From Escherichia coli (GTDB taxonomy: Bacteria > Pseudomonadota > Gammaproteobacteria > Enterobacterales > Enterobacteriaceae): a DNA stretch of 64,000 nucleotides. The notes under the pieces were generated by a model. That model saw nothing but the letters and a program-made list of their open reading frames with translations, was not told the DNA's origin and ran no database searches. Location of the stretch: the NCBI RefSeq assembly GCF_050320075.1, contig NZ_CP190018.1, one strand, 5' to 3'. The translations under genes and the position numbers were made by a program. Each line of letters begins with the position of its first letter. Positions within the stretch are counted from its first letter, which is position 1. Positions 6,003-60,807 of the stretch are shown here, piece after piece.

Positions 6003-6121
6003 CGCGTATCCTCCTCTGAAGATATTCTTTAAGTTTACTCGCTTCCCGGCAAAACGATGATTAATTCAGAGTTATATACCAGGCTTAGCTGGGGTTGCCC
6101 CTTAATCTCTGGAGAATAACG

Positions 6122-7864
6122 ATGATAAAACCGACGTTTTTACGCCGGGTAGCCATTGCTGCTCTGCTCTCAGGAAGTTGTTTTAGCGCCGCCGCCGCGC
6201 CTCCTCCGCCACCTGTTTCTTATGGCGTGGAGGAAGATGTCTTCCATCCGGTACGCGCGAAACAGGGGATGGTGGCGTCTGTAGATGCTACTGCCACTCA
6301 GGTGGGCGTGGATATCCTCAAGGAGGGCGGGAATGCCGTTGATGCTGCCGTGGCGGTGGGCTACGCGCTGGCGGTAACGCATCCGCAGGCGGGGAATCTG
6401 GGCGGCGGTGGTTTTATGCTGATCCGCTCGAAAAATGGCAATACCACCGCTATCGATTTCCGCGAAATGGCACCCGCCAAAGCGACCCGCGATATGTTCC
6501 TTGATGATCAGGGTAACCCGGACAGCAAAAAATCACTCACTTCGCATCTGGCCTCCGGTACGCCCGGTACGGTAGCAGGTTTCTCGCTGGCGTTGGATAA
6601 ATACGGCACCATGCCGTTGAACAAAGTGGTGCAACCGGCGTTTAAACTGGCACGCGATGGTTTTATCGTTAACGACGCGTTGGCTGACGATCTCAAAACC
6701 TACGGTAGCGAAGTGTTGCCGAATCACGAAAACAGCAAGGCTATCTTCTGGAAAGAGGGCGCGCCGCTGAAAAAGGGCGACAAGCTGGTGCAGGCGAACC
6801 TGGCAAAGAGCCTGGAGATGATTGCCGAAAACGGCCCGGACGAATTCTACAAAGGCACGATAGCGGAACAGATTGCCCAGGAGATGCAGAAAAACGGTGG
6901 CTTGATCACTAAAGAAGATTTAGCGGCGTATAAAGCGGTCGAACGTACACCGATTAGCGGCGATTATCGCGGGTATCAGGTTTACTCCATGCCACCGCCA
7001 TCTTCCGGCGGGATCCATATCGTACAAATCCTCAATATTCTGGAAAACTTCGATATGAAGAAATACGGCTTTGGCAGCGCCGACGCGATGCAAATCATGG
7101 CAGAAGCTGAGAAATATGCCTACGCCGACCGCTCGGAATATCTTGGCGACCCGGATTTTGTCAAAGTTCCGTGGCAGGCGCTGACCAATAAAGCCTATGC
7201 CAAATCTATTGCCGATCAAATCGATATCAATAAAGCGAAGCCATCCAGCGAAATTCGCCCCGGCAAGCTTGCGCCTTATGAGAGTAATCAAACTACCCAT
7301 TACTCAGTGGTGGATAAAGACGGCAACGCGGTAGCGGTGACCTATACGCTGAACACCACCTTCGGGACGGGCATTGTCGCGGGCGAGAGCGGTATTCTGC
7401 TTAATAACCAGATGGATGATTTCTCCGCCAAACCTGGCGTACCGAACGTTTACGGGCTGGTGGGTGGTGACGCCAACGCGGTCGGGCCGAATAAACGCCC
7501 GCTGTCGTCGATGTCCCCAACCATTGTGGTGAAAGACGGTAAAACCTGGTTAGTGACTGGTAGCCCAGGCGGTAGCCGGATCATCACTACCGTGCTGCAA
7601 ATGGTGGTGAACAGCATCGATTATGGTATGAATGTCGCCGAAGCGACCAATGCACCGCGTTTCCACCATCAGTGGTTGCCGGACGAGCTGCGTGTCGAAA
7701 AAGGGTTTAGCCCGGATACGCTCAAGCTGCTGGAAGCAAAAGGTCAGAAAGTGGCGCTGAAAGAGGCGATGGGTAGTACACAAAGCATTATGGTTGGGCC
7801 GGACGGCGAGTTGTACGGCGCATCCGATCCGCGCTCGGTGGATGATTTAACGGCGGGTTATTAA
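6122..7864 (+). CDS. ggt: gamma-glutamyltranspeptidase
   Basis: 580 aa from ATG 6122 (MIKPTFLRRVAIAALLSG...); signal peptide; conserved TTHYSVVD autoprocessing region. Confidence 0.95.
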   Translation: MIKPTFLRRVAIAALLSGSCFSAAAAPPPPPVSYGVEEDVFHPVRAKQGMVASVDATATQVGVDILKEGGNAVDAAVAVGYALAVTHPQAGNLGGGGFMLIRSKNGNTTAIDFREMAPAKATRDMFLDDQGNPDSKKSLTSHLASGTPGTVAGFSLALDKYGTMPLNKVVQPAFKLARDGFIVNDALADDLKTYGSEVLPNHENSKAIFWKEGAPLKKGDKLVQANLAKSLEMIAENGPDEFYKGTIAEQIAQEMQKNGGLITKEDLAAYKAVERTPISGDYRGYQVYSMPPPSSGGIHIVQILNILENFDMKKYGFGSADAMQIMAEAEKYAYADRSEYLGDPDFVKVPWQALTNKAYAKSIADQIDINKAKPSSEIRPGKLAPYESNQTTHYSVVDKDGNAVAVTYTLNTTFGTGIVAGESGILLNNQMDDFSAKPGVPNVYGLVGGDANAVGPNKRPLSSMSPTIVVKDGKTWLVTGSPGGSRIITTVLQMVVNSIDYGMNVAEATNAPRFHHQWLPDELRVEKGFSPDTLKLLEAKGQKVALKEAMGSTQSIMVGPDGELYGASDPRSVDDLTAGY

Positions 7865-7870
7865 GGTTAG

Positions 7871-7900
7871 CGGCCCTCTTCGTGGGAAGAGGGCCGTATT
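7871..7900 (+). terminator. probable rho-independent terminator of ggt
   Basis: Hairpin cggccctcttc-gtgg-gaagagggccg immediately after the ggt stop, followed by tatt. Confidence 0.5.
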
Positions 7901-7929
7901 GTCAGGGCAAGCCGGGTAATGACTCCAAC

Positions 7930-8433
7930 TTACTGATAGTGTTTTATGTTCAGATAATGCCCGATGACTTTGTCATGCAGCTCCACCGATTTTGAGAACG
8001 ACAGTGACTTCCGTCCCAGCCTTGCCAGATGTTGTCTCAGATTCAGGTTATGTCGCTCAATGCGCTGAGTGTAACGCTTGCTGATTACGTGCAGCTTTCC
8101 CTTCAGGCGGGATTCATACAGCGGCCAGCCATCCGTCATCCATACCACGACCTCAAAGGCCGACAGCAGGCTCAGAAGACGCTCCAGTGTGGCCAGAGTG
8201 CGTTCACCGAAGACGTGCGCCACAACCGTCCTCCGTATCCTGTCATACGCGTAAAACAGCCAGCGCTGACGTGATTTAGCACCGACGTAGCCCCACTGTT
8301 CGTCCATTTCAGCGCAGACAATCACATCACTGCCCGGCTGTATGCGCGAGGTTACCGACTGCGGCCTGAGTTTTTTAAGTGACGTAAAATCGTGTTGAGG
8401 CCAACGCCCATAATGCGGGCGGTTGCCCGGCAT
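7930..8433 (-). CDS. insB: IS1 InsB (transposase C-terminal part, made as InsAB' by frameshift)
   Basis: 167 aa ORF in the -1 frame overlapping the insA 3' end; matches IS1 InsB. Confidence 0.92.
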
Positions 8434-8627
8434 CCAACACCATTCATGGCCATATCAATGATTTTCTGGTGTGTACCGGGTTGAGAAGCGGTGTAAGTGA
8501 ACTGCAGTTGCCATGTTTTACGGCAGTGAGAGCAGAGATAGCGCTGATGTCCGGCAGTACTTTTACCGTTACGCACCACGCCTTCAGTAGCTGAGCAGGA
8601 GGGACAACTGATGGAGATGGAAGCCAC
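8352..8627 (-). CDS. insA: IS1 InsA
   Basis: 91 aa [43 protein letters not shown]...; zinc-finger/HTH protein of IS1. Confidence 0.92.
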
Positions 8628-8655
8628 GGGAGCACCTCAAAAACACCATCATACA

Positions 8656-9114
8656 CTAAATCAGTAAGTTGGCACCATTACCGGTATTTGCGATAAGATG
8701 TTGACAGAGGATAAATTCATAACTAACAGTTAATGTTTCTGTATCCAGTTGATTTTCAATGATCTGATGATGAATAGCCGATAAAAAAGCGCCTCTTAGT
8801 TGTATATAATAATACTTTCCCCATCTACCAAATCTATTTATTCGATAGAAGTCAAATTCCATAAATAATTGTTCATTATTGTTAATGGAATTAATAAATA
8901 ATGGAGTGCTTTTATCAATTAATTTACAAAATGTTATACCATGAAACTGTGAACCAAGCCCCGTATTAGTAATACTATTTAAGAATGAGAATGTAAATAT
9001 TTCATCCTCATGCCCGCTCTGCCAGCGATTACCTGTAGACTCAGAAGTCCCACAACCTGCGGAGATGCTTCCTTGTTGTTCTCCCGTTACTGTCAGGTAA
9101 ACAATATTACTCAT
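8656..9114 (-). pseudogene. yhhZ: Hcp-family (type VI secretion tube protein-like) gene truncated by IS1; the last 9 codons and the stop lie inside IS1
   Basis: 152 aa ORF MSNIVYLTVTGEQQGSISAGC...HEDEIFTFSFLNSITNTG...ITFCKLIDKSTPLF has Hcp-type motifs; the reading frame crosses the IS1 boundary at 8682 and stops at 8656; AT-rich. The yhhZ symbol is by position, from memory. Confidence 0.65.
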
Positions 9115-9349
9115 CCATGAAAAGTCCTTTTATGGCATGCTATTTTATCAATGGCACTATTATGCTTGTTAATTGTTATTTATTTACTCCAGGAAATTGT
9201 AGGCGTATATATTAAAAAATAAAATATTACACTTTAGGACGTAATTATGAGGTAAATCTTATATATTTATTGGGAAAATAAATACATTAAAAGAAGGTAT
9301 GCCGATTTTGAATGACACCCTTTTTCCATCTCAGAAAAAGGGCACTATC

Positions 9350-9838
9350 TTACTTCACCCGCGCCATATAATACGCATCGACATATTCACCATTACGTAA
9401 TGCGTACTTCTTGCCAGTCCCTTCAATCTCAAATCCAAATTTTTTATAGACTTTAATTGCTGGCGCGTTATCGATGAACACCGTTAGCTCAATACGATCT
9501 ACCCGCAACCAGTTGTCGCACATTTCAATCATCTCTCGCATCAGGGCGCTGGCGACGCCGCGATTCTTCCAACGGGAGTCGACACAAATACCAAAATCTG
9601 CAACATGACTGCGGCGTGGGCGCTGTTGCACGTCAATGGTGAGATGGCCCACGACGTCTCCATCAATACAGGCGACGAGTTGCTTGATGCCGGGACGATC
9701 GGCGAGTCGCTCCTGCCACATATGATCGGAAGGATGAGGCACCTGTAGCGTGTTGCAATACACCTCCGGCTGGGCGTGAATCTGCCTGATGGCCTCGTAA
9801 TCGCGCGTTTCAGCATGGCGTATCACTATCTCACTCAT
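9350..9838 (-). CDS. yhhY: GNAT-family N-acetyltransferase
   Basis: 162 aa from ATG at 9838 (MSEIVIRHAETRDYEAIRQIH...); GNAT motif region RGVASALMREMIE. Confidence 0.9.
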   Translation of the reverse strand: MSEIVIRHAETRDYEAIRQIHAQPEVYCNTLQVPHPSDHMWQERLADRPGIKQLVACIDGDVVGHLTIDVQQRPRRSHVADFGICVDSRWKNRGVASALMREMIEMCDNWLRVDRIELTVFIDNAPAIKVYKKFGFEIEGTGKKYALRNGEYVDAYYMARVK

Positions 9839-9919
9839 TCCTTTGTCCTCTTTGGGGTAAATGTCCCTTTCAACATCATTGACTTTCAAATGCGAGTCAA
9901 ATGCATTTTTTTTGCAAAA

Positions 9920-9960
9920 AGTGTTGGACAAGTGCGAATGAGAATGATTATTATTGTCTT
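9920..9960 (+). promoter_or_regulatory. ryhB promoter with Fur box
   Basis: gcgaatgagaatgattattattg (about 9934-9956) matches the Fur-box consensus (gataatgataatcattatc) and overlaps the -10 region directly upstream of the ryhB start. Confidence 0.65.
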
Positions 9961-10050
9961 GCGATCAGGAAGACCCTCGCGGAGAACCTGAAAGCACGAC
10001 ATTGCTCACATTGCTTCCAGTATTACTTAGCCAGCCGGGTGCTGGCTTTT
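9961..10050 (+). ncRNA. ryhB: Fur-repressed small RNA RyhB
   Basis: Sequence gcgatcaggaagaccctcgcggagaacctgaaagcacgacattgctcacattgcttccagtattacttagccagccgggtgctggctttt matches RyhB as I recall it, ending in a terminator hairpin gccagccgggtgctggc plus T-run; sits between divergent yhhY and yhhX as in K-12. Confidence 0.9.
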
Positions 10051-10172
10051 TTTTTGATCTTTCGTTTTCAATTTATCCACGGGAAGTGCTTGTGTTCGTT
10101 ATGCGCACTCCAGTAGGAACCACGTCCGCTTTGCGCTAAGGTGTAAATAATCACCTTAAAAAGGACGAAATC

Positions 10173-11210
10173 ATGGTCATCAACTGCGCCTTTATTGGCT
10201 TCGGCAAAAGCACCACCCGTTACCATCTGCCGTATGTACTTAACCGCAAGGATAGCTGGCATGTCGCGCATATTTTTCGCCGCCATGCGAAGCCGGAAGA
10301 ACAGGCCCCCATTTACTCTCATATCCATTTCACCAGCGATCTCGACGAAGTACTAAACGATCCCGATGTTAAGCTGGTTGTGGTCTGCACCCATGCAGAC
10401 AGCCACTTCGAGTACGCGAAGCGCGCGCTGGAAGCCGGGAAAAATGTGCTGGTCGAAAAACCGTTCACCCCGACGCTTGCCCAGGCGAAGGAGCTGTTTG
10501 CGCTGGCGAAAAGCAAAGGACTGACCGTCACGCCGTATCAGAATCGTCGTTTTGATTCCTGCTTCCTGACAGCGAAAAAAGCGATTGAAAGTGGCAAGTT
10601 GGGAGAGATTGTCGAAGTGGAAAGCCATTTTGACTATTACCGCCCGGTGGCAGAAACCAAACCTGGGCTGCCGCAGGATGGCGCGTTCTATGGTCTTGGT
10701 GTGCATACGATGGACCAGATTATTTCTCTGTTCGGTCGCCCGGATCACGTCGCTTATGACATCCGCAGCCTGCGTAATAAAGCCAATCCTGACGACACCT
10801 TTGAAGCGCAGCTGTTTTATGGCGACCTGAAAGCCATCGTCAAAACCAGCCATCTGGTGAAAATCGATTATCCGAAATTTATCGTTCACGGTAAGAAAGG
10901 TTCGTTTATTAAATACGGTATCGACCAGCAGGAAACCAGCCTCAAGGCTAATATTATGCCGGGCGAACCGGGATTCGCAGCGGATGATTCGGTCGGTGTG
11001 CTGGAGTATGTCAATGACGAGGGTGTGACGGTCAGAGAAGAGATGAAGCCGGAGATGGGCGATTACGGGCGCGTTTATGATGCGTTGTATCAAACCATCA
11101 CCAACGGTGCGCCAAATTACGTCAAGGAATCTGAAGTTCTTACCAATCTGGAAATCCTTGAACGAGGATTTGAGCAAGCCTCTCCCTCCACAGTGACTCT
11201 CGCGAAGTAA
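10173..11210 (+). CDS. yhhX: Gfo/Idh/MocA-family oxidoreductase
   Basis: 345 aa; N-terminal Rossmann motif AFIGFGKS; length matches YhhX. Confidence 0.9.
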   Translation: MVINCAFIGFGKSTTRYHLPYVLNRKDSWHVAHIFRRHAKPEEQAPIYSHIHFTSDLDEVLNDPDVKLVVVCTHADSHFEYAKRALEAGKNVLVEKPFTPTLAQAKELFALAKSKGLTVTPYQNRRFDSCFLTAKKAIESGKLGEIVEVESHFDYYRPVAETKPGLPQDGAFYGLGVHTMDQIISLFGRPDHVAYDIRSLRNKANPDDTFEAQLFYGDLKAIVKTSHLVKIDYPKFIVHGKKGSFIKYGIDQQETSLKANIMPGEPGFAADDSVGVLEYVNDEGVTVREEMKPEMGDYGRVYDALYQTITNGAPNYVKESEVLTNLEILERGFEQASPSTVTLAK

Positions 11211-38991: not shown

Positions 38992-39125
38992 CTTAGATAT
39001 CCTTATAAAAGACGATATTTCATTATCGGTAAATTGGCTTTGCGGGAAATCTCCGTTTACGGACGTAAAGGTATAATTTTTTTAAAAACAATGAATTAAA
39101 AAATTAAGCTGCTTATTTAATTTTC

Positions 39126-39141
39126 TGGTACGACGGTTGCA
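39126..39141 (+). promoter_or_regulatory. sigma-54 (-24/-12) promoter of rtcBA
   Basis: tGGtacgacggttGCa: GG-N10-GC spacing with TGGTAC-N5-TTGCA, 37 bp upstream of the rtcB ATG and downstream of divergent rtcR. Confidence 0.65.
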
Positions 39142-39177
39142 ATTATCAGGACATACCAACGAAAAGAGAAAAACAAA

Positions 39178-41466: not shown

Positions 41467-44178
<2,712 letters not shown>

Positions 44179-44714
44179 TCACTTCACTGTGGAAAATGAG
44201 GAAATATTATTTTTTTTGCGCTTCGTAATTAATGGTTATAAGGTCGGCCAGAAACCTTTCTAATGCAAGCGATGACGTTTTTTTATGTGTCTGAATTTGC
44301 ACTCTGTCACAATTCCAAATCTTTATTAATGACTCACCTAAAACGACGCTGATACAGCGTGAATGCTGGGTTGTACGGTATTTCCCTTATGTTCATCAGA
44401 TTCATTTAAGCAAGGGTTTCTTCTTCATTCCTGATGAAAGTGCTATCTAAAAAGATGATCTTAATAAATCTATTAAGAATGAGATGGAGCACACTGGATA
44501 TTTTACTTGTGAAACTGTTTCACTCCTTTACTTAATTTATAGAGTTACCTTCCGCTTTTTGAAAATACGCAACGGCCATTTTTTGCACTTAGATACAGAT
44601 TTTCTGCGCTGTATGGCATTGATTTGCTGCTAATCCTGTGGTTTGCACTAGCTTTAAGTGGTCGAGATCACATTTCCTTGCTCATCCCCGCAACTCCTCC
44701 CTGCCTAATCCCCC

Positions 44715-44760
44715 GCAGGATGAGGAAGGTCAACATCGAGCCTGGCAAACTAGCGATAAC
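44715..44760 (+). promoter_or_regulatory. malPQ promoter region with MalT box
   Basis: ggatgagga at 44718-44726 matches the MalT box GGA(T/G)GA about 70 bp upstream of the malP start. Confidence 0.45.
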
Positions 44761-44770
44761 GTTGTGTTGA

Positions 44771-47188
<2,418 letters not shown>

Positions 47189-57246: not shown

Positions 57247-57354
57247 AGGTGCCTACTTGTTTCTCATTAACTGGATAACTACCTCATGGGGCGTTTGACA
57301 GCGACATGAGACCAGATGATTTGCCAACGAAGGAGAGATTAAATAATCAACAAC

Positions 57355-57377
57355 ACAATGATAATGAGAATGGTTTC
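57355..57377 (-). promoter_or_regulatory. Fur box in the feoABC promoter
   Basis: aatgataatgagaatggtt resembles the Fur consensus gataatgataatcattatc, about 110 bp upstream of feoA. Confidence 0.55.
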
Positions 57378-57578
57378 TATCAGCAATACTTAAAATGTGT
57401 GCGAATGTTGGTTTGAATAATAATCTGACTCAATGTTGATGTGGCTCAAGGTTATATCGCAGCGAAAATATAATTCGAATAGCGAATTACCAGGACTGGT
57501 TAATGTTTAATTAAGGTTTCAGTTGTTAATGAAGTGATAAATATTAACGGGATATATTGAGAGTTTGGTTGTGGAATA

Positions 57579-57609
57579 AAAAGGCCGGAGATATTCTCCG
57601 GCACTTTTA
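57579..57609 (-). terminator. hairpin terminator downstream of tex
   Basis: aaaaa-ggccggagatattctccggc-actttt, a near-perfect palindrome flanked by A and T runs, about 80 nt after the tex stop. Confidence 0.5.
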
Positions 57610-57614
57610 TGTCA

Positions 57615-57662
57615 GGCAAGGCGTTCGTTGCCAGATGCGGCGTGAACGCTTTATCTGGCAGG
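57615..57662. repeat. REP-like palindromic unit
   Basis: gccagatgcggcgtgaacgctttatctggc resembles the REP consensus. Confidence 0.45.
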
Positions 57663-60580: not shown

Positions 60581-60807
60581 CTCGTTGATTCCCTTTGTCT
60601 GTTTGATAATGCGCACATTGGGTATAACGTGATCATATCAACAGAATCAATAATGTTTCGCCGAATAAATTGTATACTTAAGCTGCTGTTTAATATGCTT
60701 TGTAACAATTTAGGCTGAAATTCATACCAGATTTAGCTGGTGACGAACGTGAGCTTTTTTAAGAATACACGCTTACAAATTGTTGCGAACCTTTGGGAGT
60801 ACAAACA

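Follow-up and report, generated by a model that had tools for sequence, protein, structure and literature searches.

An AT-rich spacer in Escherichia coli as the probable upstream end of a small, H-NS-associated yhhZ islet reduced by IS1

In E. coli K-12, two "promoter islands" of the yhhZ/yrhA locus have been listed, at 3580023 (+317, inside yhhZ) and at 3581031 (+347, yrhA) (PMC3661553, Table 1). Both were assigned to a GIST island, predicted to be foreign by Nakamura and by Lawrence, and recorded as H-NS-bound by Kahramanoglou and by Oshima (PMC3661553). The yhhZ product has been described as an "evolved Hcp" (PMC2907695) and as a Hcp1-family His-Me finger toxin (PMC5714182). A Hcp-HNH DNase delivered by T6SS2, Hcp-ET1, was reported in STEC, with antibacterial activity (PMC6730261, reviewing Ma et al. 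2017); K-12 and B strains are without a T6SS (PMC6730261). Capture of insertion sequences by AT-rich, H-NS-bound DNA has been shown for IS5-family elements (PMC11335895). For the IS1E copy at yrhA of K-12, read-through from upstream has been proposed, with the predicted promoters yhhZp5 and yhhZp7 being cited (PMC12428005).

Here, a 64,000-nucleotide stretch of E. coli DNA (the window) was analysed around a spacer between yhhY and a Hcp-like gene. We put the probability at about 80% that this spacer forms the intergenic stretch at the upstream end of a small, AT-rich accessory islet, which is H-NS-associated and was reduced by IS1. The composition of the spacer, its accessory and recombining status, its homology and the IS1 truncation beside it were observed directly.

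Boundaries and composition of the spacer

The yhhY-yhhZ intergenic region (9115-9349, minus strand) forms the regulatory part at the 5′ end of the yhhZ islet. Its coordinates in the sequence-only reading were correct, with the Hcp-like ORF starting at 9114 on the minus strand and the yhhY stop codon at 9350-9352. Both A/T strings quoted there for the spacer were found again in the sequence. Calling it "almost entirely A/T" was an overstatement, the region being 71% A+T (28.9% G+C).

A sliding G+C calculation revealed a trough from ~8600 to 9450, and the spacer differed from the window average, as had been expected. Its G+C was 0.289, compared with a window mean of 0.520 (sd 0.053, 235-nt windows), and values as low were reached by 0.27% of the 235-nt windows in the 64 kb. 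Intergenic DNA is richer in A/T in general, and of the 24 intergenic regions with a length of 80 nt or more this one had the lowest G+C, only 2.25 sd under their mean (0.44). The tract 8628-9349 had a G+C of 0.328, and the window minimum (0.26) was located at 8711-8945, inside the Hcp ORF rather than in the spacer. The longest A/T-only run detected by a scan of the whole 64-kb window, 24 nt, was at 9206-9229. TpA reached 12.8% in the spacer, compared with 4.3% in the window. The density of -10-like hexamers (at least 5/6), used as a proxy for promoter islands on a spacer of 235 bp as against the at least 300 bp of the PlatProm definition, was 3.4 per 100 bp versus 0.41 in the window, ~8-fold higher and in the top 0.4% of windows.

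The Hcp ORF had also been called AT-rich relative to neighbouring core genes. This held, with a G+C of 0.34 and a GC3 of 0.268, compared with a GC3 of 0.40-0.74 for the 47 other crude genes.

As composition controls we used the remaining intergenic regions of low G+C in the window (0.31-0.39): 38992-39177 (0.306, the next lowest), 44173-44794, 57293-57620 and 60617-60792 (0.341). Judged by ORF sizes, these four look like the rtcR/rtcB, malT/malP, feoA-upstream and greB/ompR spacers.

By itself, the composition of the spacer is not diagnostic, and the argument is carried by the GC3 of the ORF and by presence/absence data. The spacer might be no more than the usual AT-rich promoter or intergenic stretch found beside a long-resident gene. 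Its low G+C would then come from the make-up of intergenic DNA in general (promoter, UP-like and curved sequences) and say nothing of foreign origin or silencing. The window's intergenic mean of 0.44 and the low values of the first and last control regions speak for this reading. So does the divergence of the spacer from K-12 (95.3% identity), which equals the rate of the flanking core genes (95.5% for ggt and 94.9% for yhhY). We nevertheless consider it unlikely. The GC3 of the adjoining ORF lies far outside the gene distribution, the G+C of the 2.7-kb islet is low throughout (0.337), and the K-12 orthologue has published foreign-gene predictions and H-NS binding. The distribution data given below oppose it further.

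An IS1-truncated yhhZ in a recombining accessory islet

The gene order around the spacer was ugpQ-yhhA-ggt (6095-7864, plus strand), IS1, truncated tssD/yhhZ, spacer, yhhY, RyhB, yhhX, yhhW and gntR. Positions 7800-10100 were 100% identical to E. coli strain YZLc1-3. Where it is intact, the islet consists of yhhZ-yrhA-yrhD-yrhB (2676 bp, G+C 0.337) between the core genes ggt and yhhY. It encodes an orphan Hcp-HNH type VI effector and the presumed immunity genes yrhA, yrhD and yrhB. The C-terminus of intact YhhZ had a HNH match of 17.4 bits, below the Pfam cut-off of 21.4, and YrhB matched Pfam Imm35 (immunity protein 35) with 81.8 bits.

In the window, codons 1-144 of the 392-aa Hcp-HNH effector remain as a yhhZ (tssD) remnant (8683-9114, minus strand). 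Its Hcp domain is complete (Pfam T6SS_HCP, PF05638, 47.7 bits, residues 26-139). The ORF of 152 aa comprises YhhZ residues 1-144 and 8 IS1-derived codons, followed by a stop, and ends at 8656. The remnant was 97% identical to residues 1-144 of intact YhhZ, and 97-98.6% identical to intact alleles. It is followed by an IS1 copy of 768 bp (7915-8682, minus strand), whose insA/insB are co-directional with the truncated yhhZ. Compared with the intact islet, IS1 replaces ~1.96 kb: the HNH-coding part of yhhZ, then yrhA and yrhD, and yrhB except for its last 13 nt. These 13 nt (stop codon and ~3 codons; 7902-7914, minus strand) still separate IS1 from the ggt terminator hairpin.

No target-site duplication was found at the ends of this IS1 (7915-8682), the flanks being ggcaagccg and ggtatttgc. 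From the sequence, the IS1 without a duplication and the loss of ~1.96 kb look like an IS1-mediated adjacent deletion. The toxin domain and the adjacent immunity genes are thus absent from the window through the IS1 deletion, while intact alleles carry the HNH part, yrhA and yrhB. The Hcp-like ORF is therefore an IS1-truncated pseudogene remnant; the same gene is annotated in YZLc1-3 as a pseudogene, "missing C-terminus". The sequence-only reading had overlooked this truncation.

Of the 5426 complete E. coli genomes, only two, YZLc1-3 and Ec-U3, had the exact IS1 junction. At least six other IS1 events, each independent, had struck the ~2.7-kb islet; the junction query behind this count sees one orientation only, and no orientation bias is claimed. 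Strains SW071611, WEM25, ES2 and 2018-11-3CC carried IS1 at different yhhZ codons, and yrhA was interrupted by IS1E in K-12 and also in WEM25. In strain 730V1, an IS1-linked deletion removed the spacer except for its last 34 bp. Taken together, these events suggest that the islet is an IS1 hot spot.

In K-12 MG1655, IS1E splits yrhA, a presumed immunity gene, and the toxin gene yhhZ is intact. A cell could tolerate the loss of yrhA beside an intact yhhZ only with a silent or inactive YhhZ, and this indirectly supports silencing or a degenerate HNH domain. The yrhB gene of K-12 (b3446) is annotated as "putative heat shock chaperone"; its product has the Imm35 match given above. The genes yrhA and yrhB of B. 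subtilis have a methionine-to-cysteine function. The "conversion of methionine to cysteine" assigned to yhhZ-yrhAB in PMC3309015 appears to be a name collision with these unrelated genes.

With a pseudogene next to the spacer, AT-richness could also be secondary, arising by relaxed selection and AT-biased mutation after inactivation by IS1. The gene is indeed a pseudogene here, and its exact IS1 junction is confined to the two genomes named above. However, strains with an intact yhhZ had the same spacer composition (G+C 0.302), their spacers were 95-97% identical to this one, as in other islet-bearing E. coli, and the upstream regions in Citrobacter are equally AT-rich. The high identity of the remnant to intact alleles also leaves little time for decay. 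Since intact alleles share the composition, decay after inactivation was rejected, and we regard it as extremely improbable.

The stretch 8690-9349 was present in 3826 of the 5426 complete genomes (70.5%), in single copy and always on the chromosome. An empty site was found in 986 genomes, with 58-60 bp between ggt and yhhY and a different hairpin in between. A third allele had yrhB only (ggt-yrhB-yhhY). In all alleles, divergence set in at the ggt and yhhY stop codons or slightly inside them. That the segment is missing in 29.5% of genomes, cleanly replaced by 58-60 bp, is not what an ordinary spacer of a long-resident gene would lead one to expect.

At the core-gene boundary of the islet, yhhY (N-acetyltransferase; 9350-9838, minus strand) is a strong recombination mosaic. 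Ten strains had 79 variable sites in its 489 nt, with pairwise identities down to 91.6%. Variants linked to the islet were restricted to the last ~60 nt. For example, yhhY of strains p11A (empty site) and 8178 (islet) was 98.2% identical and differed only in this part. Outside these last ~60 nt, the yhhY haplotype does not follow the state of the islet, which is therefore exchanged by homologous recombination. The raised diversity looks, from the alignments, like that flanking a polymorphic toxin/immunity slot. The RyhB-containing spacer adjoining yhhY was 98-99% identical.

Classical genomic island signatures were lacking: no tRNA, integrase or flanking direct repeats were detected at the islet borders. 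This absence of mobility signatures, like the filling of the same slot in Citrobacter, would also fit an ordinary intergenic region. A plasmid as vector for the cassette was considered and rejected, the close PLSDB matches being multi-megabase records that are evidently chromosomes. The PLSDB records NZ_CP134663.1, NZ_CP141089.1 and NZ_OL790696.1 (4.8-4.9 Mb) carry the yhhZ locus and are evidently mislabelled chromosomes. Sequences 94-98% identical to E. coli yhhZ were also found in a MAG labelled Flavihumibacter and in an Alkalicoccobacillus porphyridii contig (256 bp); both are most likely E. coli contamination.

A homologue of the Hcp-toxin cassette filled the same slot (yhhX-yhhY...ggt) in four Citrobacter genomes. 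Their Hcp-toxins were 70-75% identical over the first ~229 residues, several with different C-termini. A yrhA homologue was found at one Citrobacter locus and a yrhB homologue at another. The G+C of the 300 bp upstream of these cassettes was 0.30-0.36. Since the same slot is occupied in Citrobacter, the acquisition is old, and "acquired" here means ancient and since reshuffled, rather than recent. As judged from these sequences, the AT-rich leader travels together with the cassette. In C. youngae and three more Citrobacter loci, an ORF of 294 aa with normal G+C was located between yhhY and the Hcp-toxin leader. It has a signal-peptide-like N-terminus and no counterpart in E. coli.

Sequence elements in the spacer and its RyhB neighbourhood

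Directly after the yhhY stop codon, on the islet side, there is a stem-loop, GCCCUUUUUCU...AGAAAAAGGGU (9317-9343, minus strand), without a U-tract. It folds with -14 to -15 kcal/mol (z -2.06) and was unchanged across eight alleles, except for two single-base changes. From its sequence, it is probably the 3′ hairpin of the yhhY transcript. A simple terminator scan called no intrinsic terminator in the spacer, this stem-loop included.

Upstream of the remnant, the Shine-Dalgarno sequence AAGGA (9125-9129, minus strand) lies 10 nt before the yhhZ ATG (9112-9114), and it is kept in the Citrobacter and Salmonella arizonae relatives. No canonical sigma-70 promoter (-35/-10, 16-18 nt spacing) was found by consensus scan on the minus strand of 9115-9349. 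The best proximal promoter candidate for the truncated yhhZ, on reading the sequence, is an extended -10-like element, TGATAAAAT (9142-9150, minus strand). A hexamer scan added further -10-like hexamers on the minus strand, namely CATAAT at 9244-9249, TACAAT at 9196-9201 and CATAAT at 9159-9164. A literature search for transcription start site data on a yhhZ promoter found none. The constitutive RpoD promoters catalogued by gSELEX include some within the islet and none in the yhhY-yhhZ spacer.

ORFs in the spacer were only of 20-36 aa, typical of AT-rich DNA, and its repeats were short and at chance level. An Rfam search (E ≤ 1) over 7800-10300 matched RyhB as the sole family. The adjacency to RyhB given by the sequence-only reading was thereby confirmed, with the sRNA gene at 9990-10054 on the plus strand (83 bits). 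A consensus scan called its promoter, TGGACA-18-TATTAT (9925-9958), which overlaps the Fur box, and its terminator was at 10029-10047. Fur control in common with RyhB was considered for the spacer and rejected. The best spacer match to the Fur box GATAATGATAATCATTATC was 11/19, which 95.6% of shuffles equalled, whereas the RyhB promoter, as a positive control, scored 16/19 at 9940. As the spacer is without a Fur box, no regulatory meaning of the adjacency to RyhB was detected.

One block of the spacer, AGATTTnCCTCA ... TAAAGTGnAAnnTTTTAnTTT ... TATACG (9204-9259, minus strand; ~90-145 nt upstream of the ATG), is shared by E. coli and five Citrobacter cassettes of the same slot. The E. coli and Citrobacter spacers gave a collinear blastn match of 22 nt at 91%. 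In their alignment, this block and the ribosome-binding site matched and the remainder was not conserved. In paralogous cassettes located elsewhere (C. youngae, S. arizonae), the ribosome-binding site was the only part in common with the E. coli spacer. The block is a candidate promoter or regulator site.

This conservation raises the possibility that the spacer is a specifically regulated promoter, at which the block binds a dedicated activator or counter-silencer (for example for T6SS or iron), and that H-NS is not the main control. The block was kept in the five Citrobacter cassettes while the rest of the spacer was not, and a report of yhhZ induction in biofilms, cited in a review (PMC2907695), points in the same direction. 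On the other hand, an AT-rich alignment from only two clades is weak evidence, and the spacer has neither a Fur box (11/19) nor a GG-N10-GC sigma-54 motif, the latter not seen on reading its sequence. Such regulation would also be compatible with H-NS silencing and not exclusive of it. We therefore hold a promoter under dedicated control to be quite improbable.

A bolder version is just as doubtful. Here the block would be an activator or counter-silencer operator by which the orphan Hcp-toxin cassette is turned on in specific conditions, and the recurrent IS1 events would be selected rather than neutral decay. If true, IS1 events would have been selected to remove a costly toxin, or to put IS1 under that promoter.

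H-NS association and comparison with described systems

An origin of the spacer by horizontal acquisition, with H-NS-type silencing, had been proposed from its composition. This reading gained support from the accessory distribution, from recombination and from the published K-12 tables. Several features of xenogeneic DNA were found together, namely low G+C over several hundred bp, an accessory distribution with exchange, and an atypical GC3. H-NS data for the orthologous K-12 region had been suggested as a check, and there yhhZ/yrhA are listed as H-NS-bound, and as foreign by three prediction methods.

The K-12 yhhZ gene is at 3581863-3583041 in NC_000913.3, where the spacer occupies 3581627-3581862 and the islet 3581863-3585043. 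With the offset between U00096.2 and U00096.3 assumed to be ~1977 bp, the orthologue of promoter island 3580023_317 was placed at ~8661-8977, inside yhhZ. This part is listed as H-NS-bound and foreign in K-12, and it holds the G+C minimum of the window. The published K-12 islands fall in the yhhZ and yrhA ORFs, outside the 235-bp spacer. By ChAP-seq of K-12, SE11 and SE15 (PMC4720273, S2 Table), H-NS binding in ggt was confined to the 3′ end, and binding was also flagged for the transcription unit of yhhY. This pattern fits an H-NS patch spanning the islet.

A search for direct H-NS or expression data on yhhZ, derepression in hns mutants included, yielded nothing from the supplementary files of Kahramanoglou 2011, Singh 2014, Cooper 2024, ROSE and an RNA-seq compendium. 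The high-affinity H-NS 10-mer TCGATAAATT had one match with two mismatches in the spacer, four in 8650-9350, and none with one mismatch or fewer. Such a high-affinity 10-mer is not obligatory for H-NS binding.

Taking the spacer as the upstream end of an H-NS-associated islet, we propose that H-NS, probably together with StpA, would polymerise over the remaining ~670-bp AT-rich tract (8683-9349). Under this H-NS coat, spurious promoters and the weak, non-canonical promoter(s) of yhhZ would stay quiet. Transcription that escaped would run through the Hcp-only pseudogene into insA of IS1.

Among the closest described systems are the K-12 yhhZ/yrhA promoter islands of the Ozoline group (PMC3661553), which represent the same locus, with a low-G+C orthologue that is 95-97% identical. 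Dense promoter-like hexamers and an accessory distribution are common to both. In contrast to K-12, only ~670 bp survive here of the ~2.7-kb AT-rich tract.

Hcp-ET cassettes share with the window remnant an N-terminal Hcp domain. With the intact yhhZ alleles they share, in addition, a HNH-like domain at the C-terminus and, downstream of it, small genes of the immunity type (YrhB as Imm35). The Citrobacter homologues diverge after ~229 residues, like polymorphic toxins. By this analogy, YhhZ may be equated with Hcp-ET1, and its delivery by a T6SS is putative. Unlike in Hcp-ET cassettes, the toxin domain and all immunity genes were deleted here by IS1.

The islet with its independent IS1 insertions in several lineages also resembles the described capture of insertion sequences (PMC11335895), but with IS1 and not an IS5-family element. 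As for IS1E in K-12 (PMC12428005), the IS1 of the window is co-directional with the truncated yhhZ and directly downstream of it, and upstream transcription can enter. Compared with both of these cases, the IS1 in the window also brought a 1.96-kb deletion.

The AT-rich, H-NS-associated yhhZ islet is thus already described, and the finding is correct but ordinary. It is a textbook case of an AT-rich toxin-immunity islet in a fixed slot, polymorphic by recombination, listed for H-NS in K-12 and hit repeatedly by IS1. Its value is mainly for annotation, where the spacer is to be read as a relic promoter region rather than as a new element.
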